Notes: generated by a model from the letters alone, not told the origin. A DNA stretch of 64,000 bases from a virus (IMGVR_UViG_3300028588_000016:96001-160000); one strand, 5' to 3'; shown: positions 41,258-64,000, counted from the first letter of the stretch. Program-made: numbers and translations.

Positions 41258-41260
41258 ATG

Positions 41261-41333: not shown

Positions 41334-41344
41334 ATTTATAATTG

Positions 41345-47045: not shown

Positions 47046-47648
47046 ATGAAAAACTTTCAAGAATTATTAGCCGCTGGAACTATCAGCGAAGAATCTGCAG
47101 CTACTCTAGGAGCAGGCATCAAGATTAACAAAAATGCTAAACTTAAAGACTTCAATGCCGTTAACACTGGTAATGTGACTTCTACTTTCAAAGTTGGCGA
47201 CACTTTCAAAATTGTTGGCATTGGTATTGCTGACGGTAAAGTTGCTGGCGCGACTCGTACTAACATGCCAGTGTTTGAGATTGAAGACTTAGCAGGTGCT
47301 AAACGTACCGTATTTGCTTCAAGCCTTATCCGTTCTACTCCTACGTCTAACAACGAGGCTAACGGAAACGTATACGACGGCGATGATGCTCCTACCTCAG
47401 AGAAAGGTACAGCTTTATTGCAATTCGATCGTGGTATTTTGCAAGATGCCGTTGGCGCATTCCCTGCATTGGTTGACAAATTAATGGAGGCCGGCGAATA
47501 TATCCGTATTGAGGATATCATCCGTTATACTTCTAACATTAAATTGCAATCGGATCAACCTAACGGTAAAGCAGGAGACACGGTGCAAGCGCGCAATGTT
47601 GCTTATCGCTTAGTTGGTCTTAAAGACAAGGCAGAGGCAAAAGCATAA
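47046..47648 (+). CDS. hypothetical protein, first rightward gene, monocistronic
   Basis: 200 aa, visibly more GC-rich codons than neighbours, followed by strong terminator. Confidence 0.75.
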   Translation: MKNFQELLAAGTISEESAATLGAGIKINKNAKLKDFNAVNTGNVTSTFKVGDTFKIVGIGIADGKVAGATRTNMPVFEIEDLAGAKRTVFASSLIRSTPTSNNEANGNVYDGDDAPTSEKGTALLQFDRGILQDAVGAFPALVDKLMEAGEYIRIEDIIRYTSNIKLQSDQPNGKAGDTVQARNVAYRLVGLKDKAEAKA

Positions 47649-47652: not shown

Positions 47653-47685
47653 AAATAAGGGGCACTAACGTGTCCCTTATTTTTT
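47653..47685 (+). terminator. intrinsic terminator
   Basis: AAATAAGGGGCAC-TAAC-GTGTCCCTTATTT plus T run. Confidence 0.85.
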
Positions 47686-48301
47686 GTGTTTTAAGCGTAG
47701 CTTTCAGCTATCAGCTCACGTAACACATTCAAGATTGCGTAGCTTAAGAAATTAAATACTTTAATTAGTATTAAACAAATACCAACATCTCATTGGAGAT
47801 TTAAACAACTTACACTGTCGCTCTGTGGGGTGTTGTTATTTGTTATCCTTCGGGAAATGGCTCAAAGTGCAGCCATTGTAAGTACATGCTCACTTTATAT
47901 GAGAATGTATAAGTTAGTGTATTAGTATATTATTGTATTAAGTATATAATAAAGTATTAATAAGAATAAAAAATACACTTAATTAGTTAGAGTAAGAAAT
48001 TCCTAGCTGATTAAATGAAAATAAATTTAGAGTTTGTATGATAATGTAGAAGAGTTGGAAAGTTTTTAATGTGTTATGTGATAACAAGGCTGCGCCTACA
48101 ACACAACCCAACAATCTCACCAAATCTCACCACTTTCTCAAAACCCAACATACAACTCACTCATATAGACCAATTCGACAAATCTTCTCACAATTTTCAA
48201 GATTTCTCATATTTGGTATATAAGATCATCCACAACGCAATAAGTAATAGTAGCAATATTCTACTATCAAAACATATAAAAACCCATTAAACCCTACAAC
48301 A

Positions 48302-48781: not shown

Positions 48782-49088
48782 GAGTCTGCACTTGATAGGT
48801 CAGGTTTATTAATTACAGTAATTTTGGGACAGTTAACCAAGCCACATCGCGTGACTTGGTTTTCTTTATTAAACAAACTCAACCAGGAGAGTATAAAATA
48901 GTTTGTGATCAGACTGGACGAAACATATATTTATGTCAAACTGTAAAACAATATTTAAAATGGTAATGATTCAAGGAGTTCTTATGTCTTTAGAAGACGC
49001 GAGAGAGTACGATTTCAATTAAACATTTATTAACCCACACAGTTAGAGTAACAGGTTATGCTGACTCTAACTTTAAAATTATTTTAAC

Positions 49089-49860: not shown

Positions 49861-50223
49861 ATGGAGATCTTTAAGACTGCAATGAAGAGTTATACACCTG
49901 ATACGTGGATATCTGATATTGTAGGATTAACAGGTATTGCCAAGACTACGATCTCTAAATTAGTTAAAGGTCACAAGATCTCTGACTTACATTTACTAGA
50001 ACGTGATGAACTTGCAAACTATCGTAATCTATCTGATAGAAACGTAGAGATTCTTCTAGCTTTAGAAGCTAAAGGTCTATGTAAATACATGGAAAGTAAA
50101 CTAAAAGAAAACCCTGTTCCAATTATTCACAACGAAGTTAAAGGTTATTTCGATACTCCTGAATGGCAACAAGTATTTGCTAATCAAAGGGAAAGAGAAA
50201 GACTAAGAGCAGAAAATAAATAG
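49861..50223 (+). CDS. HTH-containing protein (XRE-like)
   Basis: IVGLTGIAKTTISKLVKG helix-turn-helix-like segment. Confidence 0.45.
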   Translation: MEIFKTAMKSYTPDTWISDIVGLTGIAKTTISKLVKGHKISDLHLLERDELANYRNLSDRNVEILLALEAKGLCKYMESKLKENPVPIIHNEVKGYFDTPEWQQVFANQRERERLRAENK

Positions 50224-50246
50224 CGCATAATCTATCACGATTAGGT

Positions 50247-50318
50247 CTATTAATAACCGGTTGCGTTGCTGCCATGCCTTTCGTCGCTGTACGTCTGTTA
50301 GCGACCGGTTATTAATAG
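50247..50318 (+). repeat. 18-bp hairpin upstream of ROOL-like RNA
   Basis: CTATTAATAACCGGTTGC / GCGACCGGTTATTAATAG. Confidence 0.85.
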
Positions 50319-50915
50319 GTTTAGGCCCTCAGAGGCGCTCAAGCTAGGCATAGCCCCAAAATCCATTACATGATGTGATCCCATAAAGACACATCGGCTG
50401 TCAAACAATCCTTAGTACTGCAAATATATGCCAGAGGATATGTAATGAGTATGATCGCAAATCATACAGAACCCACAAAGGCCTATCGAAGTCGAACAGA
50501 TAGGATTGCACCGACACAAAACTCTATGACAAGAGTTGACGACCAACATATGACGTTGAAAATAACCGGATCACACGTAGTCTATTACGTGCCACAACCA
50601 CACTCAAACGAACAGCCCGTAAAAAGCCGAAAGGCATGTGGGGCTGTCACGGTAGAAGTCCGGTATTAATAACTAGGAGTAGTCGCCAATTAAGGTTGAG
50701 CTTATCTAGCCGTGGAAGTCGGTTTATCATGGAAAGGTAACGTGGCCGCCTTTAATGTGCCCAATTCGAATACAACTTGCGTGGTTAATGCACAGCAAGA
50801 CGCAGGCGTATTCGGATACATTTAACCACACCGAAGAACCCTGAGCAAGTTCTGTATTTCAGCCGTCTGAAGTATTAAGTCTCAATTACAACACTAACAG
50901 TGCAAACCATTACGA
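50313..50915 (+). ncRNA. ROOL-like large structured RNA (~600 nt; boundaries approximate)
   Basis: Dense hairpins plus collinear blocks matching ROOL as I recall it: GCATAGCC, CCTTAGTAcTGCAA, AGGAGTAGTcGCCAATtAAGGTtGAGCTTATC, CGTGGAAgTCGGTTTATCAT..AAAGGTAACGTG, CAATTCGAATAC, CACACCGAAGAA, GTATTTCAGcCGTCTGAAgTATTAAGTCTCAA. Confidence 0.75.
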
Positions 50916-50940
50916 ATTAACTTCGTTAGGTTGGTCTATT

Positions 50941-50980
50941 TAAACAGGAAGTATAGAGTCGTTGACCGGCTTCCTGTTTA
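50941..50980 (+). repeat. 11-bp hairpin downstream of ROOL-like RNA
   Basis: TAAACAGGAAG / CTTCCTGTTTA. Confidence 0.85.
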
Positions 50981-51027
50981 CTTAGGTTTAGGTCTATAAG
51001 ATGCTCAAACTGTAAAACCCATTAAAG

Positions 51028-51252
51028 ATGAGAATAGAAATTCATTTAGGATATGCTCTCTATTTAGAGTGTATTCGCAAAGATCTTCAAGATCAAGCAT
51101 TAGATGTATTAATAGCTGGTCCAGATTCAGCATTAAGATGTCTGTTAGCAGATTTCAGAGAGAATAACAATCAAGCATCATTCAGCGAGTTTCATAAGTT
51201 CGCAATAGATGCCGCGATTATTGTCCAAGAATTCTTTTTACCAGAAATGTAA
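51028..51252 (+). CDS. hypothetical protein
   Basis: 74 aa with A/C-rich leader. Confidence 0.55.
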   Translation: MRIEIHLGYALYLECIRKDLQDQALDVLIAGPDSALRCLLADFRENNNQASFSEFHKFAIDAAIIVQEFFLPEM

Positions 51253-51368
51253 TGCAATTGATCAAAATTCAAGGAACATATGTAGATATATTGTCTATAG
51301 ATGTACCAGAGTAAGAACCTACAGTTAGCCGGCGATAACATCAATGGCTACTGTTTAAAATTAAAACA

Positions 51369-51545
51369 ATGGCACAAGAAACTGTAACAATAGAAGATAA
51401 AGACTACTTCATTGAGTGTAGAGATACAAAGATTGGTGATGTAGTGTATGATAAAAATAGTAAAACTACTTACGTAGCTAGTATATCAGATGCTGATGAT
51501 CTAAATTGGATCGTAGTAGAACAAATCAATCACTCAACTATTTAG
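51369..51545 (+). CDS. small hypothetical protein (58 aa)
   Basis: MAQETVTIEDKDY...; below ORF-track cutoff. Confidence 0.5.
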   Translation: MAQETVTIEDKDYFIECRDTKIGDVVYDKNSKTTYVASISDADDLNWIVVEQINHSTI

Positions 51546-51548
51546 TCA

Positions 51549-51743
51549 ATGAAATACTTAATACTTATACTCATCTTATCTACTTTAAGTTGTGGAGATG
51601 TAACAATAGCAAAACAAGTAACTAAAATAGAAAGATACAACAAAAAGCTTTCTTATTATTGGTATAATTACAGTAATGATCGTGTACTAGACACAAACAA
51701 TCGTTATAAGATAGGTGATACTGTAAACTTAGTAGAATACTAA
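51549..51743 (+). CDS. putative small lipoprotein
   Basis: MKYLILILILSTLS-C. Confidence 0.6.
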   Translation: MKYLILILILSTLSCGDVTIAKQVTKIERYNKKLSYYWYNYSNDRVLDTNNRYKIGDTVNLVEY

Positions 51744-51747
51744 CACA

Positions 51748-51969
51748 ATGGAGATAGAAATCAACGAAGAAAACCTAAACTTACTACTCAATCAAATAAG
51801 AAAACATCTGAATGATAACTCTATGGAGTTTATACTTCTTGGAAAAGATGTAACGTTCTTATCGGTAATGGACAAGATAAAGAAAGATGATCCTGGTCAT
51901 CCTATCGAAGTCTATCTATTAGCGAGTCGGTATATTAGTGATATCGTAGATGACTTCTTTAAACCGTAA
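51748..51969 (+). CDS. hypothetical protein
   Basis: 73-aa ORF. Confidence 0.55.
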   Translation: MEIEINEENLNLLLNQIRKHLNDNSMEFILLGKDVTFLSVMDKIKKDDPGHPIEVYLLASRYISDIVDDFFKP

Positions 51970-51999
51970 ACAATTTAAAAACCCATAAAACCCAAAACA

Positions 52000-52449
52000 A
52001 TGAATTCAACTCAAATCACACTAGGATCATTCAGAATGAAATCAGTGGCAAACAAAACAGTTACAAGAGTAGTAAATGCTGAACTAAATGAGTCAGGCAT
52101 GTTCTCTTTCAGTAAAGAAATGTTAAAGCACATTGGTCAAGGTATTCACCTTGTTAACCTAAAGAGTAAAGTATCTGATCCACAAGTATTATTGTCTTTA
52201 TTAGGCTTAATAACTGAAGCTTTATACGCAGAAGACGCTGATCTTGAGTTCGCTCAGAGAGAATTTACTCGTGAAGAAATTCACTTCATCCGCAAAGCTA
52301 TCTTAGCTAAGCTTGAACATTGCGAGAAACAAAAACAAGTTGAAGATGCTGATGAGAATACCACAGCGAAAACATTCAACGAAAACTCATACATCAATAT
52401 GAAGTTACTTCTTATTGACTTAGGTGAGTGGTTATCTGTTTCTATTTAA
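52000..52449 (+). CDS. hypothetical protein
   Basis: 149-aa ORF. Confidence 0.65.
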   Translation: MNSTQITLGSFRMKSVANKTVTRVVNAELNESGMFSFSKEMLKHIGQGIHLVNLKSKVSDPQVLLSLLGLITEALYAEDADLEFAQREFTREEIHFIRKAILAKLEHCEKQKQVEDADENTTAKTFNENSYINMKLLLIDLGEWLSVSI

Positions 52450-52516
52450 ACTTAATCATTAACTAAACCTAGATTGGGCGGACGTCGCTGTTTCGCCCTT
52501 TCTTAAACTTAACACA

Positions 52517-53026
52517 ATGAAGAAGATAATAGCAATAGAAACTTGGGGAGGGACCGCAGGTGGATATAAGGTAGAGTTAAACCTAGAATTAACTAAAGAC
52601 AGAGAATTAACGCAAGATGAAGTGTATTTTGCTCATACCAAAGTGCAAGAAATCATGGCGCACATAGACACCAACACGATTAAAACATCTGTTGAGTTTA
52701 TTAAAAATACAGCATCTGAACGTGAGCAACTGCTCAACTGTTTCGGTGATCATAAGATCTATGCCAAAGAAATACCATCAGAATATGGTAATCTTGAACC
52801 ATGGTTCTTAGTCACAACGCCTAAAGGTGTTATTAAGATTGGATGGCGTAAGCGTGTGATTAATATTGATTGGTCAGACTCTGATATTAAGTTCAAAACC
52901 GATGCAGAAGCTGCTATAGCCATAGAGATAGAAGATCTTCACCATACACACGGTAGAGATTACGTTCACGCTTATGGTTACGCAAAAGCAACTAAATACA
53001 TTCAACGCTTACTAAACGAAGAATAA
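52517..53026 (+). CDS. conserved phage hypothetical protein
   Basis: PWFLVTTPKGVIKIGWRKRVINIDW motif. Confidence 0.7.
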   Translation: MKKIIAIETWGGTAGGYKVELNLELTKDRELTQDEVYFAHTKVQEIMAHIDTNTIKTSVEFIKNTASEREQLLNCFGDHKIYAKEIPSEYGNLEPWFLVTTPKGVIKIGWRKRVINIDWSDSDIKFKTDAEAAIAIEIEDLHHTHGRDYVHAYGYAKATKYIQRLLNEE

Positions 53027-53242
53027 ATGCATTACGTACAGATAACAGACGAACAAGATATCAACTTCACTACTAATCTACCTATCATGCCTGAAATAGG
53101 ACATCATGTAGTAATAGACAATGAGTCACGTGAAGTATTAGAAGTTAGACATTTTATTAAACTTGATGGAGTGAGGACAACCTTCTTGAATACACAAATA
53201 TTAATTAATAGTACTTTCCACACATTACACAATGGACGCTAA
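53027..53242 (+). CDS. hypothetical protein
   Basis: 71-aa ORF. Confidence 0.55.
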   Translation: MHYVQITDEQDINFTTNLPIMPEIGHHVVIDNESREVLEVRHFIKLDGVRTTFLNTQILINSTFHTLHNGR

Positions 53243-53320
53243 AGAACCTTTATACTTAAATTCTTAGTTATACACGGTGGTGCTTGGATAAGACTATCGT
53301 GTACTTTTAAACTAAAACAA

Positions 53321-53650
53321 ATGAACAAGATACAAATCATCATCGCTTTTTATAGAAGTATGAAAACGTTTAGTAAACCTTTCAGTAAAGTAAACAATAA
53401 TCATTCGGGTATGTGTAATTTCTTTTATACCATGTATGCCAAGAGACAACTAAACGACGATAAAGCGCTAGAAAATCTTAGAATACTTAGAGGGATACTT
53501 GAACCAATGTATTTGAGTGAGTTCGAAGAAGGTAGATTACCTAGTTCAAATCAAGTGTATTGGTACTCTGTAAGTGAGTTAGGTAATAAACAAAGAGTTA
53601 AGCTTTTAAAGAAAGCCATCTACAAGACAATTAAATCCATATTCGTATGA
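53321..53650 (+). CDS. hypothetical protein, paralog of 55242-55583
   Basis: SGMCNFF...W......GNKQRVKLL. Confidence 0.65.
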   Translation: MNKIQIIIAFYRSMKTFSKPFSKVNNNHSGMCNFFYTMYAKRQLNDDKALENLRILRGILEPMYLSEFEEGRLPSSNQVYWYSVSELGNKQRVKLLKKAIYKTIKSIFV

Positions 53651-53835
53651 AAAGATTAACAACAATTCTATTACTAATAGGTGCATTTATTTGGTCTGTT
53701 GTGATAATTACAAACCCTCTTACAAGCTTAGCAATTTGTTTGTTTTGCTTAATAGCAGTAGCAATATTAGGAGGTTCTTTCTCCCTTTTCGGTAGTAGAA
53801 AAGCCTTATCAAGAGACATATACGTAAGAAGATGA
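53647..53835 (+). CDS. small membrane protein
   Basis: Two hydrophobic segments. Confidence 0.55.
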   Translation: MKRLTTILLLIGAFIWSVVIITNPLTSLAICLFCLIAVAILGGSFSLFGSRKALSRDIYVRR

Positions 53836-54224
53836 GAGCAGAATTAAAATTTACTGTATTAACAGCTAAATCAAACATACAACAATTTATGCAAGCTGCA
53901 GATGTATTCTCACCTCATAAAGTTTTGGTAGCAATACAAACAATGACTTTAACTGTTGAGTGGCCTCTCATAGATGCCGAATACATAGCTAAATGTCAAG
54001 ATAGTCTTAAACAAGCGTTAGAGAAATCTGGTTCTGTAATAACTTTTATGGGTTATCAAGGAGAAACTGAAGTTCCTGTGTATTTTAGACCAGAAGTACA
54101 ACAAATATCTAATGGTAAATCATGGGGTATGTTTCACAAATTCTTAAAGAGCATTGGCTACGAAGTAGAAACAAACGAATATGTGATGGTAACATCATGC
54201 AAAAGAATGCCGAAAGGTATTTAA
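53832..54224 (+). CDS. hypothetical protein
   Basis: 130-aa ORF. Confidence 0.6.
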   Translation: MRAELKFTVLTAKSNIQQFMQAADVFSPHKVLVAIQTMTLTVEWPLIDAEYIAKCQDSLKQALEKSGSVITFMGYQGETEVPVYFRPEVQQISNGKSWGMFHKFLKSIGYEVETNEYVMVTSCKRMPKGI

Positions 54225-54228
54225 AGAA

Positions 54229-54395
54229 TTAACCATTAACCGGATATCATAGGTAAGTCGGAATCATGACCCGGAACATAAATCTTCACATAAATAAAAC
54301 AAGAGCCTAGTGGAGTACGTGACAATATGTTCTAATAGCACTCGAGAAAGCTCTAGAAGGTAGCTGCGGGAGGCATAACGAAAGTTAATGGTTAA
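54229..54395 (+). ncRNA. candidate structured RNA, unidentified
   Basis: Perfect 12-bp closing stem TTAACCATTAAC/GTTAATGGTTAA with internal stems; no ORF. Confidence 0.5.
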
Positions 54396-54398
54396 AAT

Positions 54399-54482
54399 TA
54401 CGTCTTAGCTCAGTCTGGTCAGAGTGCCCGCATCCGCATTAACATAAGCGGGAGGTCCGAGGTTCGAATCCTTGAGACGTAA
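54399..54482 (+). tRNA. tRNA-like gene with 16-nt anticodon loop (possibly CAU-derived)
   Basis: Perfect acceptor TACGTCT/AGACGTA, D-arm, T-arm TTCGAAT; stem CCCGC/GCGGG encloses ATCCGCATTAACATAA. Confidence 0.8.
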
Positions 54483-54561
54483 CGACGTTACTAGCTAAAC
54501 GTCATTTGAGTACCGTTTTCGTTTAAATGGTGTGCAGGTTCTAGACGCCCTGCACACAACT

Positions 54562-54634
54562 TACACCGTAGCTCAGTTGGTAGAGCTTCCCGCTCTTAAC
54601 GGGAAAGTCCTTGGTTCGAGTCCAAGCGGTGTAA
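54562..54634 (+). tRNA. tRNA-Lys(CUU)
   Basis: Cloverleaf; loop CT-CTT-AA. Confidence 0.92.
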
Positions 54635-54639
54635 CAATA

Positions 54640-54712
54640 GACAATGTGGCTCGAGTGGCTAGGCGGCAGACTGCAACTCTGTCCTACAGCGGTTCGAATC
54701 CGTTCATTGTCT
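54640..54712 (+). tRNA. tRNA-Cys(GCA)
   Basis: Cloverleaf; loop CT-GCA-AC; U73. Confidence 0.9.
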
Positions 54713-54859
54713 CATTAATTGAATAACAGTATGAAACAAGCAAATAGCGGCTTTATGCACAGCACGCGAAAAATAAATCACTTCGAAACCGACTATCGGG
54801 AAAGCTTGGAAGGTCTGAATGCAAGCTTGTTATATCTGACTGCAGAGAAGATATAATAT

Positions 54860-55120
54860 GTGAGGACGTAGAGGAACACTATTAAACAATAATTGCTAAA
54901 CCCTGAAAGAAACTACGAGGTAACTCGTAGAATGGATGCTGTCATATGACTTACACAGCTATATACCATTGGGAGTGTCAAGCTAGATCCTTATTATCGA
55001 GTGCTGAAGATAATGAGGATGCTAAAGCAAGGGGTGAGAGCCCTGCAGTCACAATCATAAAGATTGAGAGCGTTAATTTAGATAGCAATTAGAGGGCGCG
55101 ATGCCCTCTATTGTTTTTAA
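54860..55120 (+). ncRNA. candidate multi-branched structured RNA, unidentified
   Basis: Closing stems AAACAAT/ATTGTTT and AATTGCTA/TAGCAATT enclosing five hairpins, two with GNRA loops. Confidence 0.6.
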
Positions 55121-55241
55121 TTGTCCACTATTCACATCCTAATCACTAAAGCTATGGAACCACTAGAAGCTTTATTAATCATTACAGGTATAGGAGCAGT
55201 ATTGCTCGTTTCTTATTTGTACAGCAAACACTTTATTGAAA

Positions 55242-55583
55242 ATGACAAAACAAGAAGTACTTAAAGAACTAAGGATAGCTAGATTCTGGTATTGGATCGG
55301 AATCTATCTTCCTTTTGCTGAAATGTTTATAAATATATTCAGCTACAAACCTAACACATCTTCTGGATTGTGTAATTATTTTAGAATAAGACACAGTAGA
55401 TCTAGATTTGTTAAGATGTATCTAGTTGATTTTGCTCCTAAAGCACTTAGAGAATGTAGATCAACAGCTTTTCTAGGCATAACAGGTATAGCTTGGTTTC
55501 CTATGACCCGTAAAGGCGATAAACAACGCTTAGAAATACTAAGAGAAGCTTATGAATATTATAAATACTTTGGAATAGAATAG
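55242..55583 (+). CDS. hypothetical protein, paralog of 53321-53650
   Basis: SGLCNYF...W......GDKQRLEIL; start taken as ATG 55242. Confidence 0.65.
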   Translation: MTKQEVLKELRIARFWYWIGIYLPFAEMFINIFSYKPNTSSGLCNYFRIRHSRSRFVKMYLVDFAPKALRECRSTAFLGITGIAWFPMTRKGDKQRLEILREAYEYYKYFGIE

Positions 55584-55597
55584 AGGAGGAACATTAA

Positions 55598-55972
55598 ATG
55601 GCAGAAGGATGCAGTGATGGAAACAGAGTCTTTCCTAACACAACAAATCGATTTGATATACCTTTCAATCCACGGGTTGAGAGGTTTTCTAATACAAATC
55701 CTATAATAATTAGGAACTGGGAAGGAGATCCAGTTAAATGTGGCATATTGAGAAGTAAACTCATGAGAACAGGTAAACCGTGCTTTATTGGCGAAGGTTT
55801 CCTATTTGGTTACGGAGAAGGAATAGTAGAGTACAATCCTATGGATAATACTTGTGCTCCACCTCCTGTTGAGAATGCTGACTTAGATACACTAACTCCA
55901 GCTCTATTAACGGTCATGACGGCACTTGTGTTGTTGAGACCTAAACGTTTACTTAGATGGTTTAACAAATAA
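55598..55972 (+). CDS. C-terminally anchored membrane protein
   Basis: Pro linker, hydrophobic helix, basic tail. Confidence 0.55.
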   Translation: MAEGCSDGNRVFPNTTNRFDIPFNPRVERFSNTNPIIIRNWEGDPVKCGILRSKLMRTGKPCFIGEGFLFGYGEGIVEYNPMDNTCAPPPVENADLDTLTPALLTVMTALVLLRPKRLLRWFNK

Positions 55973-56358
55973 TGCAAATACCTATACAAGAGGTACTAAA
56001 CCACAAAAAGTGGTTAGGTGCAGAAATAATCTCATCAGTCAGTAACATGACTAATGAAGAAGTTCATCAAATAGCTGAAAAAGCAAAAGAGCAAGGTTAC
56101 TACGAACTTAAAATCATAGTAAACGGTGTAACAACTGAACCTTATTGGTTAAAAGAAATGCTTGATAATACTGAAAAGTATATTGATGCAGAAGCTAAAT
56201 CGTTACAACGTAATCTATACGGTGACACCAATGATGAATTTAGAGAAGTTGTTAACAAGTTCACTCGTGAATTAGATGCAGCTAGATTAGCTTTATTTGA
56301 AAAGCATTTCACTCCTGAACAAATTCAAGAATTTGCTTATCATGACGGAAGCTATTAA
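55972..56358 (+). CDS. hypothetical protein
   Basis: 128-aa ORF. Confidence 0.65.
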   Translation: MQIPIQEVLNHKKWLGAEIISSVSNMTNEEVHQIAEKAKEQGYYELKIIVNGVTTEPYWLKEMLDNTEKYIDAEAKSLQRNLYGDTNDEFREVVNKFTRELDAARLALFEKHFTPEQIQEFAYHDGSY

Positions 56359-56524
56359 GAGAATACTCACACCTTGGAGTATTCACAAAACAAATTGGGA
56401 ACGTAATATGTTACATCTTATAGTAAAATGGGAAGTTCATTACGACATCCCTCAATACGGTGCTAGGCACATTACTTTCACGTTGAGTGATGGTAGTAAA
56501 CAAAATTTTAGCGAAACATTCTAA
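56342..56524 (+). CDS. hypothetical protein
   Basis: Likely ATG 56342 overlapping upstream stop. Confidence 0.5.
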   Translation: MTEAIKRILTPWSIHKTNWERNMLHLIVKWEVHYDIPQYGARHITFTLSDGSKQNFSETF

Positions 56525-56742
56525 TGGCAATTAACTTAACTACATTAAGAGAACAACATAACATCGAAGTTATGATTAAGTCTTGGAAAGAAGGTGGCGA
56601 TATTGTCTATGTATATAGCGTAAACGAATTAGGAAAACCCTCTAAATACAGTTTAGAAAACAAGTCTCTAACTTATCGTGAAGCACTAGCTAAAGCGTTT
56701 AACAAAGCTAACGAACAAATTCAAAATGAAAAGAGAATTTAA
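56524..56742 (+). CDS. hypothetical protein
   Basis: 72-aa ORF. Confidence 0.55.
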   Translation: MAINLTTLREQHNIEVMIKSWKEGGDIVYVYSVNELGKPSKYSLENKSLTYREALAKAFNKANEQIQNEKRI

Positions 56743-57907
56743 ATTAATAAAAGAGTATCCAGGTTCTCCTAAGAAAGGTGCTGTAATTACAGAATCATTA
56801 CGCGTTACTATAAACAATAGTAGAACAGCGAACAAGGAAGAGAATCAATACACTATCAAAGTGGACAGTCAACACTGTGACGGTTGTAGATTCAATATAA
56901 AGAACCCACAAGACTTCCCAGAATTCTGGCAAGAGGTTACTAAGGATTACGAAATATTATCCTTTACAAACGAAGCTGGTAGTATCTTTACTAGAACTGA
57001 AGATAGAAGATATTGGTTAAATCATCATCCTTTTACTGAACGTTGGTTAATTGATAACAAAGATATGTTCATACATTCAGTCAAACGTCTAAAAGACGGA
57101 CAAATCTTTACAGTAGGCGATCTAATTGAACGTAGCCGTGAGTATAAAGTATACAATACTATTAAGAAGATAGAGTTCGGTAGTGACTTGGGTTCTGATC
57201 TTAAAATTCGTATAGACTTTGAAAAGGCTTCTAACAAAACTGAAGAGCATGGTTACAATCGTTTCGCATGGTTAAACGAGTTGAGAAAACCAGAAGAAGA
57301 GAAGTATCTTATTGAATCTTTTATCATTAAGTTACCAAGTGGTAAAGAAGAAGTTGCTTACATACGCGATCAAGGTGGTTATTCAACTATAGACGACGGT
57401 ATTACTTATCCTGCATTAGCTTATCTAAATGAGACCTCTAAAGCTAACGGATGGAGAATACGTTCAGTTATGCGTATCGAAGACAAAGAAGTATTTAAAC
57501 TAGGCGACTTTTGTGCTCCAGATAGTGTAATAACTAACAGAGCACCTATAGATAAGATAGAATTCTGTAAAGCAGGTTATCTTAGATTTCAAGCTAAAGA
57601 TAAGTATTACGTTGGTATTGACAATCTTGTTAAGCTTGAAGTAATACTTAACACAAGAGACGGTGTCAACAAGTACAAAGGTGACAAAGTCTATTGGACT
57701 AAGGAAGACATCTTTTCTACTACTAACATACCTATTAGGCTCAGTGCAGGTTATCGACCTAAACCTGATATGATTTACTTCGATTCAAAAGATTTATTAC
57801 AAGACTATATCACTACAAATAAACCGTTACTGTCTCATCGTGAAGCAACTACGCTAAGTCATTTAGAAATGTATCAGTTAGTTAAATCACGCTTAAATTT
57901 TAAATAA
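56726..57907 (+). CDS. hypothetical protein with two internal repeats
   Basis: IHSVKRLKDGQIFTVGD and IRSVMRIEDKEVFKLGD. Confidence 0.75.
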   Translation: MKREFKLIKEYPGSPKKGAVITESLRVTINNSRTANKEENQYTIKVDSQHCDGCRFNIKNPQDFPEFWQEVTKDYEILSFTNEAGSIFTRTEDRRYWLNHHPFTERWLIDNKDMFIHSVKRLKDGQIFTVGDLIERSREYKVYNTIKKIEFGSDLGSDLKIRIDFEKASNKTEEHGYNRFAWLNELRKPEEEKYLIESFIIKLPSGKEEVAYIRDQGGYSTIDDGITYPALAYLNETSKANGWRIRSVMRIEDKEVFKLGDFCAPDSVITNRAPIDKIEFCKAGYLRFQAKDKYYVGIDNLVKLEVILNTRDGVNKYKGDKVYWTKEDIFSTTNIPIRLSAGYRPKPDMIYFDSKDLLQDYITTNKPLLSHREATTLSHLEMYQLVKSRLNFK

Positions 57908-58035
57908 TGGATAAATTCCTTATATTAACACCCGCTGTTCAAATAACAGCTATAATAGCATTCATGGTATGTTTTGCTGTATTCTGGATCTCATTTACTG
58001 ATTCATGGGGAAGTATCTTTAGAAAGAAAAGATGA
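57907..58035 (+). CDS. small membrane peptide (42 aa)
   Basis: Hydrophobic; overlaps both neighbours. Confidence 0.45.
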   Translation: MDKFLILTPAVQITAIIAFMVCFAVFWISFTDSWGSIFRKKR

Positions 58036-58532
58036 ACTATATAGAGAAATTAGATTTGACTCTGAAGAACCTTCAGAAGGTTTATGACGAGTTACCTGCA
58101 TTAGCAGAAAAGATACCGGCAATACGTACTGATTTCGACATATGTCACTTCGGTGTATATTGGGCACAAACTAAACAATTTGTACTCACTAACGATTGTG
58201 GTACAACAGGTTGTCTATTAGGTAATGCTGCTAGACTATTTGATTTACAAAATAATGCTTATTATCATCATGTAGGTGCTAGATTAGAGTTTTCTTACAT
58301 GCATTTCGGATCAACTATTTTTCCTGCTCTTTATCGTGCTTATAAAGACGGTACACCTAATATGTGGCAACCTAACGATATGTGGGATTATCTATTCAGT
58401 GAACATTGGGCACACACTCAGCCAACCTTTGATCAAGCTATTGCACGTCTCAAATACTTCTTAGAAGTTAAAGGTGATGTAGGTGAAGAAGGTGTTGATT
58501 GGTTTTTCAGACCAGAAGTAGAAGACTATTAA
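58032..58532 (+). CDS. hypothetical phage protein with CGTxxCxxG motif
   Basis: NDCGTTGCLLG. Confidence 0.7.
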   Translation: MNYIEKLDLTLKNLQKVYDELPALAEKIPAIRTDFDICHFGVYWAQTKQFVLTNDCGTTGCLLGNAARLFDLQNNAYYHHVGARLEFSYMHFGSTIFPALYRAYKDGTPNMWQPNDMWDYLFSEHWAHTQPTFDQAIARLKYFLEVKGDVGEEGVDWFFRPEVEDY

Positions 58533-58544
58533 TTATAAATAACT

Positions 58545-58781
58545 ATGAAACTACCTAGAAAATTAAAGAAGCTGTTTAATAAGCTATACATTGGTGAAAA
58601 AACTCAACAGAACTTTAACTGGGTATTTCATAAACGTATGGTTATTATTCACAACTACGTACTAGGAGAGATACCTATCAAACTAACAAAACAAGACGAG
58701 ACGTTCATAAGGAACGGCTTATTAGTTAACCCTAAATTTAAAGTTCCTTATGGCGAAGTACGGAATACAAAAAGGCGATAA
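58545..58781 (+). CDS. hypothetical protein
   Basis: 78 aa, KLPRKLKK start. Confidence 0.55.
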   Translation: MKLPRKLKKLFNKLYIGEKTQQNFNWVFHKRMVIIHNYVLGEIPIKLTKQDETFIRNGLLVNPKFKVPYGEVRNTKRR

Positions 58782-58950
58782 AATACGCGCACGTTACAAT
58801 CACACACGTGAAGAGAACGGTCCTACTATTGTTCACGAAGGTGGAGATATAGGTAAAGAGTTAACTGTAACCAAAGTTTGGAGTCACGGTGTGAGAACAA
58901 GAGAACATGGTTACATTCACAATAACAGAATACTAAGTAAAGCTGAATAA
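58750..58950 (+). CDS. small SH3/KOW-like protein
   Basis: IQKGDKIR...G..LTVTKV. Confidence 0.5.
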   Translation: MAKYGIQKGDKIRARYNHTREENGPTIVHEGGDIGKELTVTKVWSHGVRTREHGYIHNNRILSKAE

Positions 58951-59240
58951 TGGAAGACTTTATAAAAGAAAACATTGAGAAGCTAGGCTTCAAATTAATT
59001 AAATACGAAGAAAGCACTTGGGATAAAGGTGTTTTCTACGGAGTTGCTCACGATATTAAAGCTAACGGCATGACTCAACTACAATGGTGTAGCGGAGGTC
59101 ACAGTTGTACTTATTTCGGTGACAAATTAGAAAAGAACATCTCTATCGGTGTTAAAAAAGATGGTGGAACTCGTCACGCATTTAATGGTTATGTGTTCAC
59201 ACTTGAAGACTTCGAACGCGTACTTAAACTTACTTGGTAA
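58950..59240 (+). CDS. hypothetical protein
   Basis: 96-aa ORF. Confidence 0.6.
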   Translation: MEDFIKENIEKLGFKLIKYEESTWDKGVFYGVAHDIKANGMTQLQWCSGGHSCTYFGDKLEKNISIGVKKDGGTRHAFNGYVFTLEDFERVLKLTW

Positions 59241-59416
59241 TGAACGGAGAACAATACAATCAAGCACTTATCGCTTTCAGTGATGCAGAAAGAATCATCA
59301 TCACTTTAAATAAAATACGTGCTGATAAGAGAGATCCTTTCCTTAACGATCAAGAGAAAGCCGAAGTTCTATCAGAACAATTAAGTAAGTTTGGATTAAC
59401 AATTTACGAGCCATGA
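59234..59416 (+). CDS. hypothetical protein
   Basis: 60-aa ORF. Confidence 0.5.
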   Translation: MVMNGEQYNQALIAFSDAERIIITLNKIRADKRDPFLNDQEKAEVLSEQLSKFGLTIYEP

Positions 59417-59790
59417 CATTAGAAGCACTAAACATAACACTAATCATCTTATTTTGGCATTTCATAGCTGACTTCTTATGTCAAACTGATTGGATGGCTA
59501 ACAATAAGAGTAAGGGTTGGGATGCGTTGCTATGGCATACGGCTATTTACAGCGTATTGTGGTTTTTTCCTGTAATAACTTACGGAATAATATACGATGC
59601 TCCACAAAGAATAATACTATTTGTACCTATTACATTCGTAGCACATACTGTTACTGATTATATTACAAGTAGAGAAACTACTAAATTGTGGACAGATGGT
59701 AAAATTAGACCTTTCTTTCATGTTATAGGATTAGATCAATACTTGCACTACATACAATTATTTGTAACCTTTTACGCACTAACACGATGA
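59413..59790 (+). CDS. DUF3307-like membrane protein
   Basis: HFIADFLCQT.WMA..K, H...D, DQYLH motifs. Confidence 0.75.
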   Translation: MTLEALNITLIILFWHFIADFLCQTDWMANNKSKGWDALLWHTAIYSVLWFFPVITYGIIYDAPQRIILFVPITFVAHTVTDYITSRETTKLWTDGKIRPFFHVIGLDQYLHYIQLFVTFYALTR

Positions 59791-60185
59791 AAGACGGAGA
59801 CTTAAAATACTATCCATTTCTTAATAGTTGGATTAATCATGTTTTACTGAATCCTCAAGTTCAGCCAGAAAAGTTTGGTATAACTATAGACGTGTATCGT
59901 TATCATAGTAAAACTAATTATCCATTTTATTTAGATCGCCCTAATTACTACGAAGCTTTTAAATCTATCTTCATTAGAGAAGACTCTATAGAGGTTCGCA
60001 AGAATCTAGATAGTATAGTTAAAATGGGTTGGGCTGATCCTCGTATTCTATCTCCAAGTATTGAAGAAACTATTCAATTAGTGCGTTCACGCTTCGGATG
60101 GAAACCTTTTGATCTTACTGAATTCAGTCGAGATTTTGATGAAGAAGTAACCAGAGATACACAATGCTACAAGAACAATTCGTAA
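59787..60185 (+). CDS. hypothetical protein
   Basis: 132-aa ORF. Confidence 0.6.
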   Translation: MKDGDLKYYPFLNSWINHVLLNPQVQPEKFGITIDVYRYHSKTNYPFYLDRPNYYEAFKSIFIREDSIEVRKNLDSIVKMGWADPRILSPSIEETIQLVRSRFGWKPFDLTEFSRDFDEEVTRDTQCYKNNS

Positions 60186-60529
60186 CAAAAGAGATAGCTT
60201 ATACTTTAAAGAGAATGGGTTTCTCTGAAAAGTGTTTTGGTTATTACAGTGCAATGGCTGATCGCGTTTCGTTACAAGTAGGTTGTTCCAATCCAGGATT
60301 TGTTAAACAGTCTGAAGGAATAGCACACGGTAAGAGTATTCGTATGAGAGCTAGAATAGCTGCGCCTTTATGGCAACAAGCTCAAGATTTCTTAAACTGT
60401 AAACTATATTCTAACGAAATAACGGATCATTTAGTAGACACTAGAGAAATCATCATCTTACAATTAATTGATTACGTAACAGAACATGAACGCAATAGAA
60501 ATACTGAAGATACAACAAGAAATTATTAA
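60164..60529 (+). CDS. hypothetical protein
   Basis: FV..EIA..LK..GF.E.C.GYY...APLWQQ motif common in Bacteroidota phages. Confidence 0.65.
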   Translation: MLQEQFVTKEIAYTLKRMGFSEKCFGYYSAMADRVSLQVGCSNPGFVKQSEGIAHGKSIRMRARIAAPLWQQAQDFLNCKLYSNEITDHLVDTREIIILQLIDYVTEHERNRNTEDTTRNY

Positions 60530-60896
60530 ACGTGAGTGGTTTAAAGCTTACGGTAGTGTACCCAATCTATCAGGAATGTGTCTAGTAGGTTACGAATGTA
60601 ACTCTATGGCTAATTGGTTTGGAGACAACGGATTAGATATCGATTTGTTTAATGTTGAACATGATGCAGACGGTATATTCTCTATTCATCCTAAATCACT
60701 TGAAGGTTTATGGGATAATAACGGTTGGACTATTTACGAAGGTTATGATAAACTACCTAAAGAAGAAGCTTATTACGAAATGGTAGACAGAGCTGCAAAC
60801 ATAAGTGTAGTATCTGTATGTGATCTCATGAGAGCAGCTTCAAATGCCACATTAACTCACTACAGGAAGTACGAACCCAAACTTCCTTTTTATTAA
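60486..60896 (+). CDS. hypothetical protein
   Basis: 136-aa ORF. Confidence 0.6.
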   Translation: MNAIEILKIQQEIIKREWFKAYGSVPNLSGMCLVGYECNSMANWFGDNGLDIDLFNVEHDADGIFSIHPKSLEGLWDNNGWTIYEGYDKLPKEEAYYEMVDRAANISVVSVCDLMRAASNATLTHYRKYEPKLPFY

Positions 60897-60932
60897 AATA
60901 TTCTAACTTTCATTGTTAGGACTATTGGGTTG

Positions 60933-60962
60933 CCGGCGGGATGGGGATCCTGCCGGTTTTTT
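60933..60962 (+). terminator. intrinsic terminator
   Basis: CCGGCGGGAT-GGGG-ATCCTGCCGG plus T6. Confidence 0.85.
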
Positions 60963-60982
60963 ACTTATCTAAATTAACTCTA

Positions 60983-61231
60983 ATGATTAAAACAGATCCA
61001 CTCAAAGACTTAGAAGCCACAAAGGCTATCGCTCTTAAATATGCTAGAGCAAACAACAAGAATTATCATATAATTCTATTTAATCCAGTTAAAGGTCAAT
61101 TCGATCCAGAAACTTCAACCTACTCATTTGTAGAAGATGATTACTTCAAAATTGAAAGACCTAATTCATTAAAATTAACGACAACCGATGAACTTCGTGG
61201 AAAAGAGAAAGCCGCTGCTACAATTAGATAA
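60983..61231 (+). CDS. hypothetical protein
   Basis: Start moved to ATG 60983 because the track start lies within the terminator. Confidence 0.6.
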   Translation: MIKTDPLKDLEATKAIALKYARANNKNYHIILFNPVKGQFDPETSTYSFVEDDYFKIERPNSLKLTTTDELRGKEKAAATIR

Positions 61232-61246
61232 GGATGCTAAGTTTGG

Positions 61247-61525
61247 TTGGGGAATTATAATCTTCATTGTAGCGTTAGCAGCTCATTCTATTTACCGATT
61301 AATGCACACATTCTAATGTACGATATCCCAATTAAGCAACAAGCAAGGTTTTACAGCTTATGCTGTAATCGTATGGTAAGTACTATGCCTAGAACTCTTA
61401 GTGAATTCTTAGCAGGAGTAGAAGAAGTACACATCTGTAAAGGTTGTACTGAAATTTGTAATGTAGAATTAAAACCAGTTTATGAAGAAGTCAACAAAGG
61501 AATCTATCGTAAAATCGAGTACTGA
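61247..61525 (+). CDS. hypothetical Cys-containing protein
   Basis: SLCC...CKGCTEIC possible Zn ribbon. Confidence 0.5.
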   Translation: MGNYNLHCSVSSSFYLPINAHILMYDIPIKQQARFYSLCCNRMVSTMPRTLSEFLAGVEEVHICKGCTEICNVELKPVYEEVNKGIYRKIEY

Positions 61526-61742
61526 CATTCCTATACCTCAAACTATTGTTTGTCTAAATAAAACATGGTTATACGATAGCACTAACGGAGCAAAGATTAA
61601 AGCAAGAAACATACAAGCCTATCTAAGAACTAAGTTAGGGTTACCTACTTTAACTCCACCTGTTATTCCACAAAAGCATCGTGCAATTAAACGTAAAGGA
61701 GCAATTACTCCTAGATGGATTGATAACTATTACGGAAACTAA
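61482..61742 (+). CDS. hypothetical basic protein
   Basis: 86-aa ORF. Confidence 0.55.
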   Translation: MKKSTKESIVKSSTDIPIPQTIVCLNKTWLYDSTNGAKIKARNIQAYLRTKLGLPTLTPPVIPQKHRAIKRKGAITPRWIDNYYGN

Positions 61743-61918
61743 CTATGCGACTAAAGAAAAAAGAAAAACAGGGACTAGGTTGCTTAACTATTTTGATTTT
61801 AGCAACAGGCATACCTATAGCTACATGGTTGTATTACGAATTTAAAGAGCCAGAACGTTATTACTTTATTGATATGTATCAAGAACAAGCTAATGAAGCT
61901 GCTGAGAAGAATAAGTAA

Positions 61919-62134
61919 ATGTATTATCGAAACTATCCACTAAGTCTACACAATAAAATACCATTTGGCAAATTCCGCGGAACTCCTGTGCGTATGATGT
62001 TTAGTAAACGTTATTGGTATTTGGTTTGGTTGCATGAAGTAACAAATTGTAAACTTGAACAATGGATATATGAGTTAGCTCTTAAGATTCGTTCTAACAG
62101 TAAAAGATACAAAAAGCGCTACACCATTAGCTAA
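61919..62134 (+). CDS. DUF3820-like small protein
   Basis: IPFGKFRG...Y..WL motif. Confidence 0.65.
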   Translation: MYYRNYPLSLHNKIPFGKFRGTPVRMMFSKRYWYLVWLHEVTNCKLEQWIYELALKIRSNSKRYKKRYTIS

Positions 62135-62149
62135 AAAGTTATGGCTTAT

Positions 62150-62325
62150 GAGGAGTGATGTCCGATGAGCTGAACCAAACCTTGTGTGATTGTAATGATC
62201 ACATTAGCAAGGACAGTGGTATTATGATTAATTACTAATCACGTGAGAATTTGAGAACTAACTGGCTGTAAAGACACAGGTAAATCCTCAATAAGCTGTA
62301 TTCTGACATCAATCGGACAATGCAG
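62150..62325 (+). ncRNA. candidate structured RNA, unidentified
   Basis: Closing stem TGTCCGAT/ATCGGACA with at least four internal helices; no ORF. Confidence 0.55.
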
Positions 62326-62379
62326 GTTCTATTTAACAAGTACGATAAACTTGTTTATTTTAACTTAAACTAAACTATC

Positions 62380-62775
62380 ATGATTATAAATAAAGACGTC
62401 GACTCATACAGTAATGTTACATATCACTTCTATATTCATAATGGATGTGTAGTGTATGTTCATAATTACAAAACCCTTTACGTATTCAAAGACGTATCTC
62501 CTAAGAGAGTAACCAGATCTAATCGTTGGAACAGTGTTAAAATGCCTGGCTTTAAGAAGATGAAGACTGTATACGTATCTAATGAACAACTTAAAGATCC
62601 TACGTTTTTACCTAATCTTTGGGCTGCTGAAACTATACGTAATATAGTATTCGGTGGTAAATTAGGTACTAAATATACTATGGACTGTATCGGATGGGGT
62701 GCTTCTAACGTTAGTTATTTTGGCGCAATGAGTTCTTCAAATAAACCTGGGTTTAAGATGCGAATTAATAAATAA
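62380..62775 (+). CDS. hypothetical protein
   Basis: 131 aa ending 2 nt before tmRNA. Confidence 0.6.
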   Translation: MIINKDVDSYSNVTYHFYIHNGCVVYVHNYKTLYVFKDVSPKRVTRSNRWNSVKMPGFKKMKTVYVSNEQLKDPTFLPNLWAAETIRNIVFGGKLGTKYTMDCIGWGASNVSYFGAMSSSNKPGFKMRINK

Positions 62776-62777
62776 AA

Positions 62778-63133
62778 GGGCGCGTTCTTGGTACTTGAGC
62801 GGGTAAGAACTAAAAGAGAAGCATGTAGTGCGTTGTTTGTGTGCACTTAAAAGAAGCATTCACATTTTTAACTGGCACTCCGGTGTACAGAATGGCTGCC
62901 TAGTCTCTAGGAGACGTAGTCATTCGCCCAGAAATGGGTTCGCGATCCATGACACTTGGGATCACATACTCGTGTTTAGACTTTGGCTGCAGTTGTGAGA
63001 CATCTGAACTGCAGATAGTTGTCTGTTTACAACAGAATAGGCCGTTCCTTATAGCCAATAAATGTAGGATAAACATGTAATGAAGGCTTTTACTATTTAC
63101 AACGTGACGAGGGTTCGACTCCCTCCGCGTCCA
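62778..63133 (+). ncRNA. ssrA: tmRNA
   Basis: Acceptor GGGCGCG/CGCGTCC with G3-U70 and A73; T-arm GAGGG-TTCGACT-CCCTC; tag ORF 62874-62903 after TAACT. Confidence 0.9.
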
Positions 63134-63170
63134 CTATGCACATGGTGTGCATCAATTAAATTAAATTACG

Positions 63171-63554
63171 ATGTTAAACGACAACAAACAACAACAATCG
63201 GTAATCCTTAAAGGCATTGCACAACAATTATTAACTATGCAAATGCCTACTTTTGACGAAGCAAACAAATTATTAGCTAGCTTCAGTGTCCGTTTAGTAA
63301 CAGAAGAAGAAGAACATAGACAATCTATTATTGCCGCATTAGCCGCAAATGAGAAGACTGTGTATTTTTGTTACGAATGTGAAGGCCCTAACAAAGAAAC
63401 TTTACGTTATAAAGTAGCTTTATCTTGGGAAAAGAGAAATCCAGAAACAATGGATCGCTTAGTCGCTTTAGAAAGTGTTAAAAGGTCTGCTTTTACAACA
63501 ACTAGTAAATCTGACGCTGAACATTTCATCAATAATCACATTATGCCTAGATAG
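63171..63554 (+). CDS. hypothetical protein
   Basis: 127-aa ORF. Confidence 0.6.
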   Translation: MLNDNKQQQSVILKGIAQQLLTMQMPTFDEANKLLASFSVRLVTEEEEHRQSIIAALAANEKTVYFCYECEGPNKETLRYKVALSWEKRNPETMDRLVALESVKRSAFTTTSKSDAEHFINNHIMPR

Positions 63555-63555
63555 T

Positions 63556-63756
63556 ATGTCAAAGAACTCAATGGAAAGACACAACAAAGGTAGAGTGAAC
63601 GGTGCTGATAGTTTCTTAGCAGACATCAGTAAAGCCGAAGCACTTACCTTAGCTGAGAAACACGGTTATGACGTAATGTTAAAATGTGTACCTAGAAGAA
63701 TCAAACGAGAAGTAGCTAGGAATAAAGCAAAGAAACAAAGAAACGAGCCTCTGTAG
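63556..63756 (+). CDS. small basic hypothetical protein
   Basis: Likely ATG 63556 just after upstream stop. Confidence 0.5.
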   Translation: MSKNSMERHNKGRVNGADSFLADISKAEALTLAEKHGYDVMLKCVPRRIKREVARNKAKKQRNEPL

Positions 63757-63995
63757 TTAACTGGCTAGTGTATCCTGCACGATAGAGAAATGATGTGACA
63801 ATCATAAGGAGCATGTAAGTTAGTTCAACTTACTCAGTCGGACAACAGTCTGTGAGTGTACTGAAGGCAGTGGTCTAAACACCTTAAATCCCTAACTTTC
63901 GAGGACAGCGTTAATCCATTATTCTAGTCAACGACGCCTTTAACGAGGTTTATAGTCAGGCAATACGGTAAATGGTAGTTGGGATTTTAAATAAC
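63757..63995 (+). ncRNA. candidate structured RNA, unidentified (may extend past window)
   Basis: Serial hairpins plus AAATCCC(T)AACT/AGTTGGGATTT closing stem. Confidence 0.55.
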
Positions 63996-64000
63996 AAAAC

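Follow-up and report, generated by a model that had tools for sequence, protein, structure and literature searches.

The stretch of DNA considered here, referred to as the window, comprises 64,000 nucleotides (nt) and corresponds to bases 96001-160000 of the 183,312-bp genome of an uncultured phage, a single IMG/VR record (IMGVR_UViG_3300028588_000016) that CheckV rates as complete; coordinates are counted from the start of the window unless stated otherwise. Late genes lie on the minus strand up to ~46 kb of the window, and from 47046 the plus strand is occupied by small orphan early genes; ten of the largest match no Pfam family, and three have weak PHROG matches only. Positions 50224-64000 lie in the early (plus-strand) arm of this tailed phage, whose host is probably a member of the Bacteroidota. 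The host is suggested by the type of promoter that precedes the late array of transfer RNA (tRNA) genes and by the N-terminal homology of a 393-amino-acid (aa) early protein to proteins of Flavobacterium and Cellulophaga phages; GroEL was uninformative in this respect, its sole match being to a 45%-identical metagenome-assembled genome from Clostridia.

In the last 14 kb of the window the original prediction had seen an RNA-based arsenal for host takeover, in which a ROOL-like RNA, a loop-expanded tRNA, two normal tRNAs, a transfer-messenger RNA (tmRNA) and four multi-stem RNAs act together with a late-side tRNA array and chaperonins. The reading that we consider likely, if some way from assured, is a plainer one: these are separate RNA genes of known kinds, set among small orphan early genes, and not one system. 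All of the elements that could be verified serve translation.

Three relatives served for comparison: a 172-kb phage (loci L014, L015 and L020; terminase 62% identical), a 181-kb phage (L018 and L021; terminase 55%) and a 178-kb phage (L017 and L022; 51% in a 194-aa anchor protein). The best terminase match is 69% identical and lies on short contigs; terminases at 68–69%, or 194-aa proteins at 61–80%, occur only on contigs of 0.65–11.6 kb. For the 393-aa early protein, no relative above 36% identity was present among 5.8 billion proteins. Late-arm genes are syntenic in the relatives, but comparison with the nearest long relative shows no conservation of early-arm proteins.

RNA genes of the early arm

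The two tRNAs described as normal are just that: tRNA-Lys(CUU) and tRNA-Cys(GCA) are each called by both ARAGORN and Rfam and have canonical loops (Table 1). The loop-expanded tRNA is likewise real. Its score exceeds the cut-off of the Rfam tRNA model (29 bits), and it forms a cloverleaf with a 7-bp acceptor stem, GG in the D loop, an AGGUC variable loop and a UUCGAAU T loop. As read from the sequence, its anticodon loop spans 16 nt (AUCCGCAUUAACAUAA) between the strands of a 5-bp stem (CCCGC/GCGGG), in place of a 7-nt loop with a triplet. Because a loop of this size cannot present a triplet, the RNA cannot decode in its present form, and we refer to it as a tRNA look-alike.

The look-alike lies 79 nt upstream of tRNA-Lys, within one predicted terminator-bounded unit. 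This putative operon would start with a leader and the look-alike, continue through tRNA-Lys(CUU), tRNA-Cys(GCA) and a tail that is non-coding, and finish with a probable gene for 48 aa ahead of an intrinsic terminator. The leader ends in an 11–12-bp closing stem whose last nucleotide falls 3 nt before the look-alike. It folds with a z-score of -2.0, inside the background of the early arm (9 of 200 shuffles fold equally well), and may be a 5′ leader or a small RNA. Coding potential was judged by a codon log-likelihood ratio (LLR), which averages 0.32 (sd 0.17) in 60 small early open reading frames (ORFs), is -0.004 and -0.29 in ORFs that overlap tRNA or tmRNA genes, and is about -0.05 in non-coding ORFs. 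On this scale the single ORF of the tail (45 aa; -0.05) looks non-coding and the 48-aa ORF, for which no family match was found, looks like a gene. The segment 54714-55089 has a fold z-score of -2.8.

None of the tRNA genes encodes CCA, so that their transcripts need 3′ processing and CCA addition. A 412-aa ORF elsewhere in the phage genome belongs to the PolyA_pol/CCA-adding-enzyme family, which fits with the absence of an encoded CCA from the tRNA and tmRNA genes of the phage.

The tmRNA is likewise confirmed. The one-piece gene called by ARAGORN aligns with the full length of the Rfam model (positions 1–374). Its acceptor stem, GGGCGCG/CGCGUCC, contains the G3:U70 pair, its T arm is GGGUUCGACUCCC, and its tag frame, read from the sequence, is stop-terminated and encodes (A)GTPVYRMAA. 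Two of the three relatives carry a tmRNA in their early arms (40 bits in L021, where ARAGORN also makes the call, and 85 bits in L022), and the third has a fragment-like match of 71 nt to the model (L020 17140-17210; 31.8 bits only). Across the window and these two relatives the acceptor stems covary while keeping G3:U70 (GGGCGCG/CGCGUCC, GGGGGUG/CACCUCC and GGGCCCG/CGGGUCC). The tmRNA is a conserved early-arm trait in a poorly known group of ~170–183-kb phages. The tags assigned by ARAGORN in the relatives (L021 13369-13753 and L022 14137-14508) are unusually long, at 27–32 aa, and end in RLRVA and RLRAA, against 9 aa and RMAA in the window; the resume codons of the relatives are possibly mis-assigned. 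An acceptor stem and T arm minihelix also occurs 1.35 kb downstream of the tmRNA, between two ORFs (L016 1483-1527, window-equivalent 64483-64527).

The manner in which these parts are distributed among the relatives speaks to whether they constitute one system. The tmRNA is present in two of three early arms. The tRNA array and GroEL are present at the syntenic late-arm site in none of the three. The early-arm tRNA and tRNA-like genes (Lys, Cys and the expanded-loop look-alike here) make up a different set in every genome, and the ORF-free slots described below are unrelated in sequence. From this pattern we conclude that the parts have been gained and lost independently, which is an outcome that the original prediction had named as refuting it, and the proposal of a coordinated system is not supported. 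Nor are the parts co-transcribed by prediction: of the terminators predicted in the early arm (47653-47682, 55090-55118 and 60932-60965), the latter two separate the tRNA operon from the tmRNA. What does stand is the theme of translation, carried by the tRNAs, the tmRNA and the CCA-adding-enzyme homologue; the coordination, and the large RNAs cast as decoys, scaffolds or containers, find no support.

Table 1. Positions of the RNA genes and other features discussed in the text
Feature	Position	Strand	Evidence or remark
Portal	26604-28856	-	late arm
Terminase	29163-31286	-	late arm
Cpn10-like co-chaperonin	33715-34074	-	Pfam Cpn10, 22.9 bits vs cut-off 21.1
Phage GroEL	35750-37312	-	PHROG 5725, 1.8e-152; Pfam Cpn60_TCP1, 8.7e-72
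17-tRNA array	37570-41417	-	15 by ARAGORN, 2 by Rfam only
Bacteroidota-type promoter	41434-41464	-	TTTG-N19-TAnnTTTG, ahead of the tRNA array
ORF-free region, 804 nt	50224-51027	+	non-coding, GC-enriched
Leader, 167 nt	54229-54395	+	ORF-free, directly upstream of the look-alike
tRNA look-alike, 84 nt	54399-54482	+	Rfam tRNA (RF00005), 51 bits; no ARAGORN call
tRNA-Lys(CUU)	54562-54635	+	ARAGORN and Rfam, 68.5 bits; canonical loop
tRNA-Cys(GCA)	54640-54713	+	ARAGORN and Rfam, 44.7 bits; canonical loop
Tail after tRNA-Cys	54714-54945	+	non-coding
48-aa ORF	54946-55092	+	codon LLR +0.37, gene-like
Intrinsic terminator of the tRNA unit	55090-55118	+	9-bp GC-rich stem, then TTGTTTTT
Intergenic spacer (earlier '170-nt RNA')	62135-62379	+	GC 0.35
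One-piece tmRNA	62778-63136	+	ARAGORN; Rfam RF00023, 59.7 bits vs gathering 47
CCA-adding-enzyme family ORF	G000:C1:51099-51494, outside the window (locus L043)		PF01743, 78.8 bits

The ORF-free slot and the candidate multi-stem RNAs

The region 50224-51027, which had been taken for a ROOL-like RNA, is non-coding. It contains no ORF of at least 100 aa under genetic code table 11 or with TAG read as glutamine (Q) or TGA as tryptophan (W), and its sole 74-aa ORF has a codon LLR of -0.05. A gene hidden by recoding (TAG=Q, TGA=W or TAA=Q) was considered and rejected: with TAA readthrough, frames of 100–224 aa do open, each with 3–10 readthroughs, and the 224-aa frame continues into the downstream genes; no suppressor tRNA is present among the phage tRNAs found. 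The G+C fraction (GC) of the region is 0.44, compared with ~0.33 in its flanks.

The ROOL model (RF03087; threshold 99.1 bits) gave no match at E ≤ 10, either in a local scan of 50200-51050 or in the whole 183-kb genome (6 candidates scored). No other Rfam family, GOLLD included, matched the region at its gathering threshold, at E ≤ 1 or at E ≤ 10. The predicted fold has a z-score of -3.3 (20 shuffles) or -2.3 (30 shuffles), and five coding controls of the same length from the early arm give -1.7, -2.4, +0.2, -2.3 and -2.1; there is no asymmetry in favour of the plus strand, and the reverse strand folds slightly better. Likewise, megablast and blastn found no homologue among 50,697 phage records, and four pattern scans (two of viral sequences, including IMG/VR, and two of metagenomes) returned either nothing or chance matches lacking BLAST similarity. 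Known ROOL and GOLLD RNAs reside in phages near tRNAs (PMC5737381), and the region resembles them in its size of several hundred nucleotides and in its location in the early arm of a phage, with 3.2 kb and ~12 ORFs between it and the tRNA operon downstream. That context is non-specific, and the region differs from both families in that it has no covariance-model match, no evident conserved junctions or pseudoknots, and structure at background level. With no match to the model, a fold equal to that of coding controls and no relative found, the identification as ROOL-like is unsupported.

Comparison with the relatives shows instead that a positionally conserved, sequence-variable non-coding slot exists. 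An ORF-free slot lies 2.3–3.2 kb past the first early gene in each phage, and it measures 804 nt here and 893, 2028 and 1245 nt in the three relatives. The sequences are unalignable: the window and L015 slots share 12 8-mers where 13.4 are expected, and the L021 and L022 slots have in common one hairpin block of ~100 nt with a palindromic centre. The slots are structured no more than flanking coding windows; the L015 slot has a z-score of -7.2, and the slot of one relative is AT-rich (GC 0.33). We conclude that 50224-51027 is the non-coding, GC-rich occupant of a variable slot found in all sampled relatives, and that it is not ROOL; as an RNA gene it is putative and doubtful.

Two readings of the slot deserve consideration. 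The first, which we regard as possible although on the unlikely side, is that 50224-51027 and its counterparts act at the DNA level or are junk, whether a recombination-prone slot, what is left of genes since lost, or a region with long inverted repeats that serves regulation or replication. The constant position with unrelated sequence in every phage agrees with this, as do the background-level thermodynamic signal, the single hairpin common to L021 and L022, and an 18-bp perfect inverted repeat on the palindrome TTAATAACCGGTTATTAA that is found in this region and nowhere else in the genome. However, enrichment in GC would not be expected of decayed AT-rich phage genes or of typical AT-rich origins, and no iterons or repeat arrays were found.

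On the second reading, 50224-51027 would encode a large structured phage RNA that is new, works as ROOL or GOLLD does without belonging to either family, and evolves too fast to be aligned with the RNAs in the slots of the relatives. In its favour are 804 nt without a convincing ORF in a gene-dense genome, a position on the early-gene strand upstream of the tRNAs that is the one described for ROOL and GOLLD, slots of 0.9–2.0 kb at the corresponding site of three relatives, and the strong fold of the L015 slot. Set against this, the four slots show no detectable kinship, one of them is AT-rich, and the searches, fold statistics and strand comparison described above all came back empty or at background; we therefore think such an RNA unlikely.

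The four unrecognised multi-stem RNAs had been proposed without coordinates, and the candidates evaluated here were taken from other annotations of the window and from its ORF-free gaps. One is the leader of the tRNA operon. Only 54860-55120, previously described as a 261-nt ornate RNA, folds better than its shuffles (z -4.2); it includes the 48-aa ORF and the terminator at 55090-55118, and the likeliest reading is that of a small gene with its terminator. The segment 62140-62379 (z -1.6; 16 of 200 shuffles fold equally well) belongs to an ordinary intergenic spacer, in which the sequence shows an AT-rich hairpin and, behind it, a run of T at ~62333-62360. The last, 63555-64000, has a z-score of +0.1 and partly overlaps a plausible 93-aa ORF. 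For most of these candidates, the absence of genes is the only point in favour of an RNA. More generally, a sliding z-score in 150-nt windows does not pick out the true tRNAs and the tmRNA, for which reason it was dropped as evidence, and since coding sequence scores the same, neither a hairpin-rich look nor minimum-free-energy z-scores are evidence for RNA genes in this genome.

Probable roles of the verified RNAs

If the verified parts are separate RNA genes of known kinds, a simple account of their use can be given. The two early tRNAs would add to the tRNAs of the host or take their place in the first phase of infection, in line with the published role of phage tRNAs in codon compensation or against nucleases (PMC10264068, PMC11555353). 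The tmRNA, which lies 8 kb downstream of the tRNA operon in another predicted transcription unit, would by analogy with its family be charged by the host alanyl-tRNA synthetase, consistent with its G3:U70 pair, and together with host SmpB would free ribosomes stalled on broken messages during takeover. The dependence on the host protein is suggested by the phage genome, in which no SmpB gene was found; RtcB, RNA ligase and TROVE genes were likewise not found there.

It is informative to set these parts beside those of other phages. Sets of tmRNA and tRNA genes are known in large and huge phages (PMC7162821), and the set described here resembles them in combining a one-piece tmRNA, many tRNAs and a tRNA-maturation enzyme, with the presumed role of sustaining translation during infection. 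It differs from the huge-phage sets in that the genome, at 183 kb, falls below the 200-kb cut-off and has no phage SmpB. It also differs in its tag, which ends in RMAA where the usual ending is ALAA, and in having its tmRNA in the early arm, an arrangement found in at least three phages of the group.

The look-alike calls for a different explanation. It keeps the acceptor and T arms and the elbow, the very parts read by RNase P, RNase Z and the CCA-adding enzyme, and loses the decoding loop only, and a second gene of this type as well as long tRNA-like genes in the relatives are at hand; on these grounds we read such RNAs as selected mimics. They would be non-decoding RNAs that one or other of these enzymes recognises through the intact top half, and they most likely contribute to processing or stability or act as decoys for enzymes. 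The second look-alike (L016 12519-12611, window-equivalent 75519-75611; 34.7 bits with Rfam) has a 19-nt loop, AUCCCAGGCACCAGAAGCA. The non-canonical tRNA-like genes of the relatives are 93–96 nt long with intact acceptor and T arms, or take the form of a class-II-shaped tRNA(CAU) or of permuted YrlA-like modules. Precedent exists in the T4 RNAs rnaC and rnaD (species 1 and 2), whose annotated place is the distal end of that phage's tRNA cluster (NC_000866 70908-71171). Like them, the look-alike is non-decoding, tRNA-like and inside a phage tRNA cluster, and both it and the tail at 54714-54945 occupy positions comparable to those of the T4 RNAs, which are small non-decoding RNAs within or next to a tRNA transcription unit. 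The likeness is one of position and type, with no homology expected, and here the full cloverleaf is kept with only the anticodon loop enlarged. By this analogy the look-alikes would belong with stable RNAs of the rnaC/rnaD kind, their stability being a prediction. A phage group unusually rich in non-canonical tRNA-like genes adds cases to a 50-year-old question about phage tRNA look-alikes.

It is also conceivable that the 16-nt-loop gene is a decaying pseudogene, a former tRNA(CAU) altered by small insertions or duplications. Within its loop CCGCAU stands twice in tandem (CCGCAU CCGCAU) and UAA is repeated, deletion of 9 nt would restore AU-CAU-AA, and no homologue attests to its conservation. 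Yet outside the loop the molecule is flawless, a second gene of this phage is expanded at the same site, and the long tRNA-like genes of the relatives keep intact acceptor and T arms. The second gene and these relatives argue against random decay, and a pseudogene is in our judgement an improbable origin.

Several smaller observations concern the look-alikes and the early tRNAs. Both expanded loops begin with AUCC; the early-arm tRNAs are mostly C34 isoacceptors (CUU, CCA and CAU); and Gly alone among the amino acids has no canonical phage tRNA. The Gly gap and the shared AUCC may be coincidence, or CCG and CCC anticodons may be hidden in the expanded loops. A mini-intron of the archaeal (bulge-helix-bulge) type within these loops was rejected, as inspection by eye found no such pairing. 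Just beyond the window (G000:C1:160001-160084; window-equivalent 64001-64084; L016 1001-1084) lies a tRNA with the Trp anticodon CCA and a class-II body, comprising a 15-nt variable arm with a 3-bp stem, a D loop of the Ser/Leu type and a G73 discriminator. The class-II-shaped tRNA(CAU) of a relative is at L020 9732-9820.

The permuted modules, in which a T arm is followed by a linker-closed acceptor stem and a D arm, are found at L015 19601-19663 (the same site as L020 10455-10517) and at L015 20192-20285. They match the YrlA model (RF02553) in part, with 43 and 27 bits against a gathering score of 69, and thus resemble Y-RNA modules to the extent that mimics of the tRNA top half recur in this phage group. 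In a distant 169-kb phage that shares only the 393-aa early protein (27% identity), a gene for a TROVE/Ro60-family protein stands beside a 9-tRNA array (L008 2432-4006), with ORF-free gaps on both sides that could hold Y RNAs. A Ro60/Y-RNA system for the window was considered on the strength of that gene and rejected: the window has no YrlA match and the genome no TROVE gene.

Some findings weigh against reading the locus as familiar parts without a common design. The ORF-free slot is at a matching place in all four phages, the GC of 50224-51027 equals that of the verified RNA genes, and together these features fit a real, fast-evolving RNA gene that has escaped detection. Early promoters are not recognisable, the Bacteroidota -7 motif not being enriched in the early arm, and the transcription units are drawn from predicted terminators. 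Independence among relatives whose terminases are 50–64% identical is compatible with cooperation inside this one phage. Finally, the role given to the look-alikes, although the most likely one, is deduced from sequence.

These points lend some interest to a more elaborate model, in which the retained slot (0.8–2.0 kb) encodes fast-evolving large RNAs of the ROOL/GOLLD sort and a changing cast of tRNA look-alikes that do not decode (some with an expanded loop, some combining a class-II body with a class-I anticodon, some permuted and YrlA-like) forms a second layer that manipulates host enzymes of tRNA handling; we consider this distinctly unlikely.

A single coordinated system of early RNAs, by which translation is protected or rebuilt in the face of defences that target tRNAs and ribosomes and in which the large RNAs are decoys, scaffolds or containers, is highly improbable: the verified parts do all lie in the early arm and relate to translation, and countering tRNA-cleaving defences is a published role of phage tRNAs (PMC10264068, PMC11555353), which an early tRNA-Lys would fit, but the elements vary independently and are separated by predicted terminators, the large RNAs draw nothing from the Rfam, fold and codon analyses, the RtcB and RNA ligase repair genes were not found in the genome, and loops of 16–19 nt are unlike the 7-nt loops that anticodon nucleases cut. 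As in the published cases, the early tRNAs, one of them tRNA-Lys, could restore pools depleted by an anticodon nuclease; both canonical early tRNAs have ordinary loops, and an expanded-loop RNA, being unable to decode, cannot replace a cleaved tRNA. The composite arsenal, if true, would amount to a counter-defence module of a new, RNA-only kind; the evidence points instead to familiar parts.

Late-side genes and other features of the window

The late side does carry 17 tRNAs, GroEL and a Cpn10-like gene, the last with a homologue conserved in the relatives. The description of the tRNAs as having atypical loops is an overstatement, because 14 of the 15 ARAGORN-called tRNAs have a textbook 7-nt loop with U33 and R37. 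The exceptions number about 3 of 17: a tRNA-Glu with C37 and the two found by Rfam only, of which Asp(GUC) has U37 and Ala(UGC) is weak, its acceptor stem being poor. GroEL and the array are flanked here by a conserved exonuclease gene and the conserved 194-aa gene, and as nothing lies at that site in the three relatives, the 6-kb block was either gained in this lineage or lost from theirs.

The first early gene (47046-47648, plus strand) has counterparts in the three relatives, at L015 10001-10696, L021 3062-3667 and L022 4490-5089. In all four phages the gene encodes ~200–231 aa and is markedly GC-rich (0.40–0.52); a comparison of the window copy with that of L015 detected no similarity in sequence.

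A hammerhead ribozyme of the RAGATH-1 type is predicted at 48876-48942 on the plus strand, where it scores 60.7 bits (gathering score 56.3). It lies 1.3 kb upstream of 50224-51027, with an early ORF on either side. Its core reads GUGAUCAG in place of CUGAUGAG, the partners C3 and G8 being swapped. This swap is a compensatory pair with which activity can be retained, and the predicted ribozyme would cleave the early transcript after GUC at ~48937.

Behind the terminator of the first early gene, an AT-rich stretch of ~600 nt on the plus strand (47690-48300) contains several long perfect hairpins and a 73-aa ORF that looks non-coding (codon LLR -0.05). Its fold z-score of -4.4 is stronger than that of every region named in the original prediction, and 25 nt of it, at 47805-47829, repeat the 5′ end of tRNA-Lys with 84% identity.

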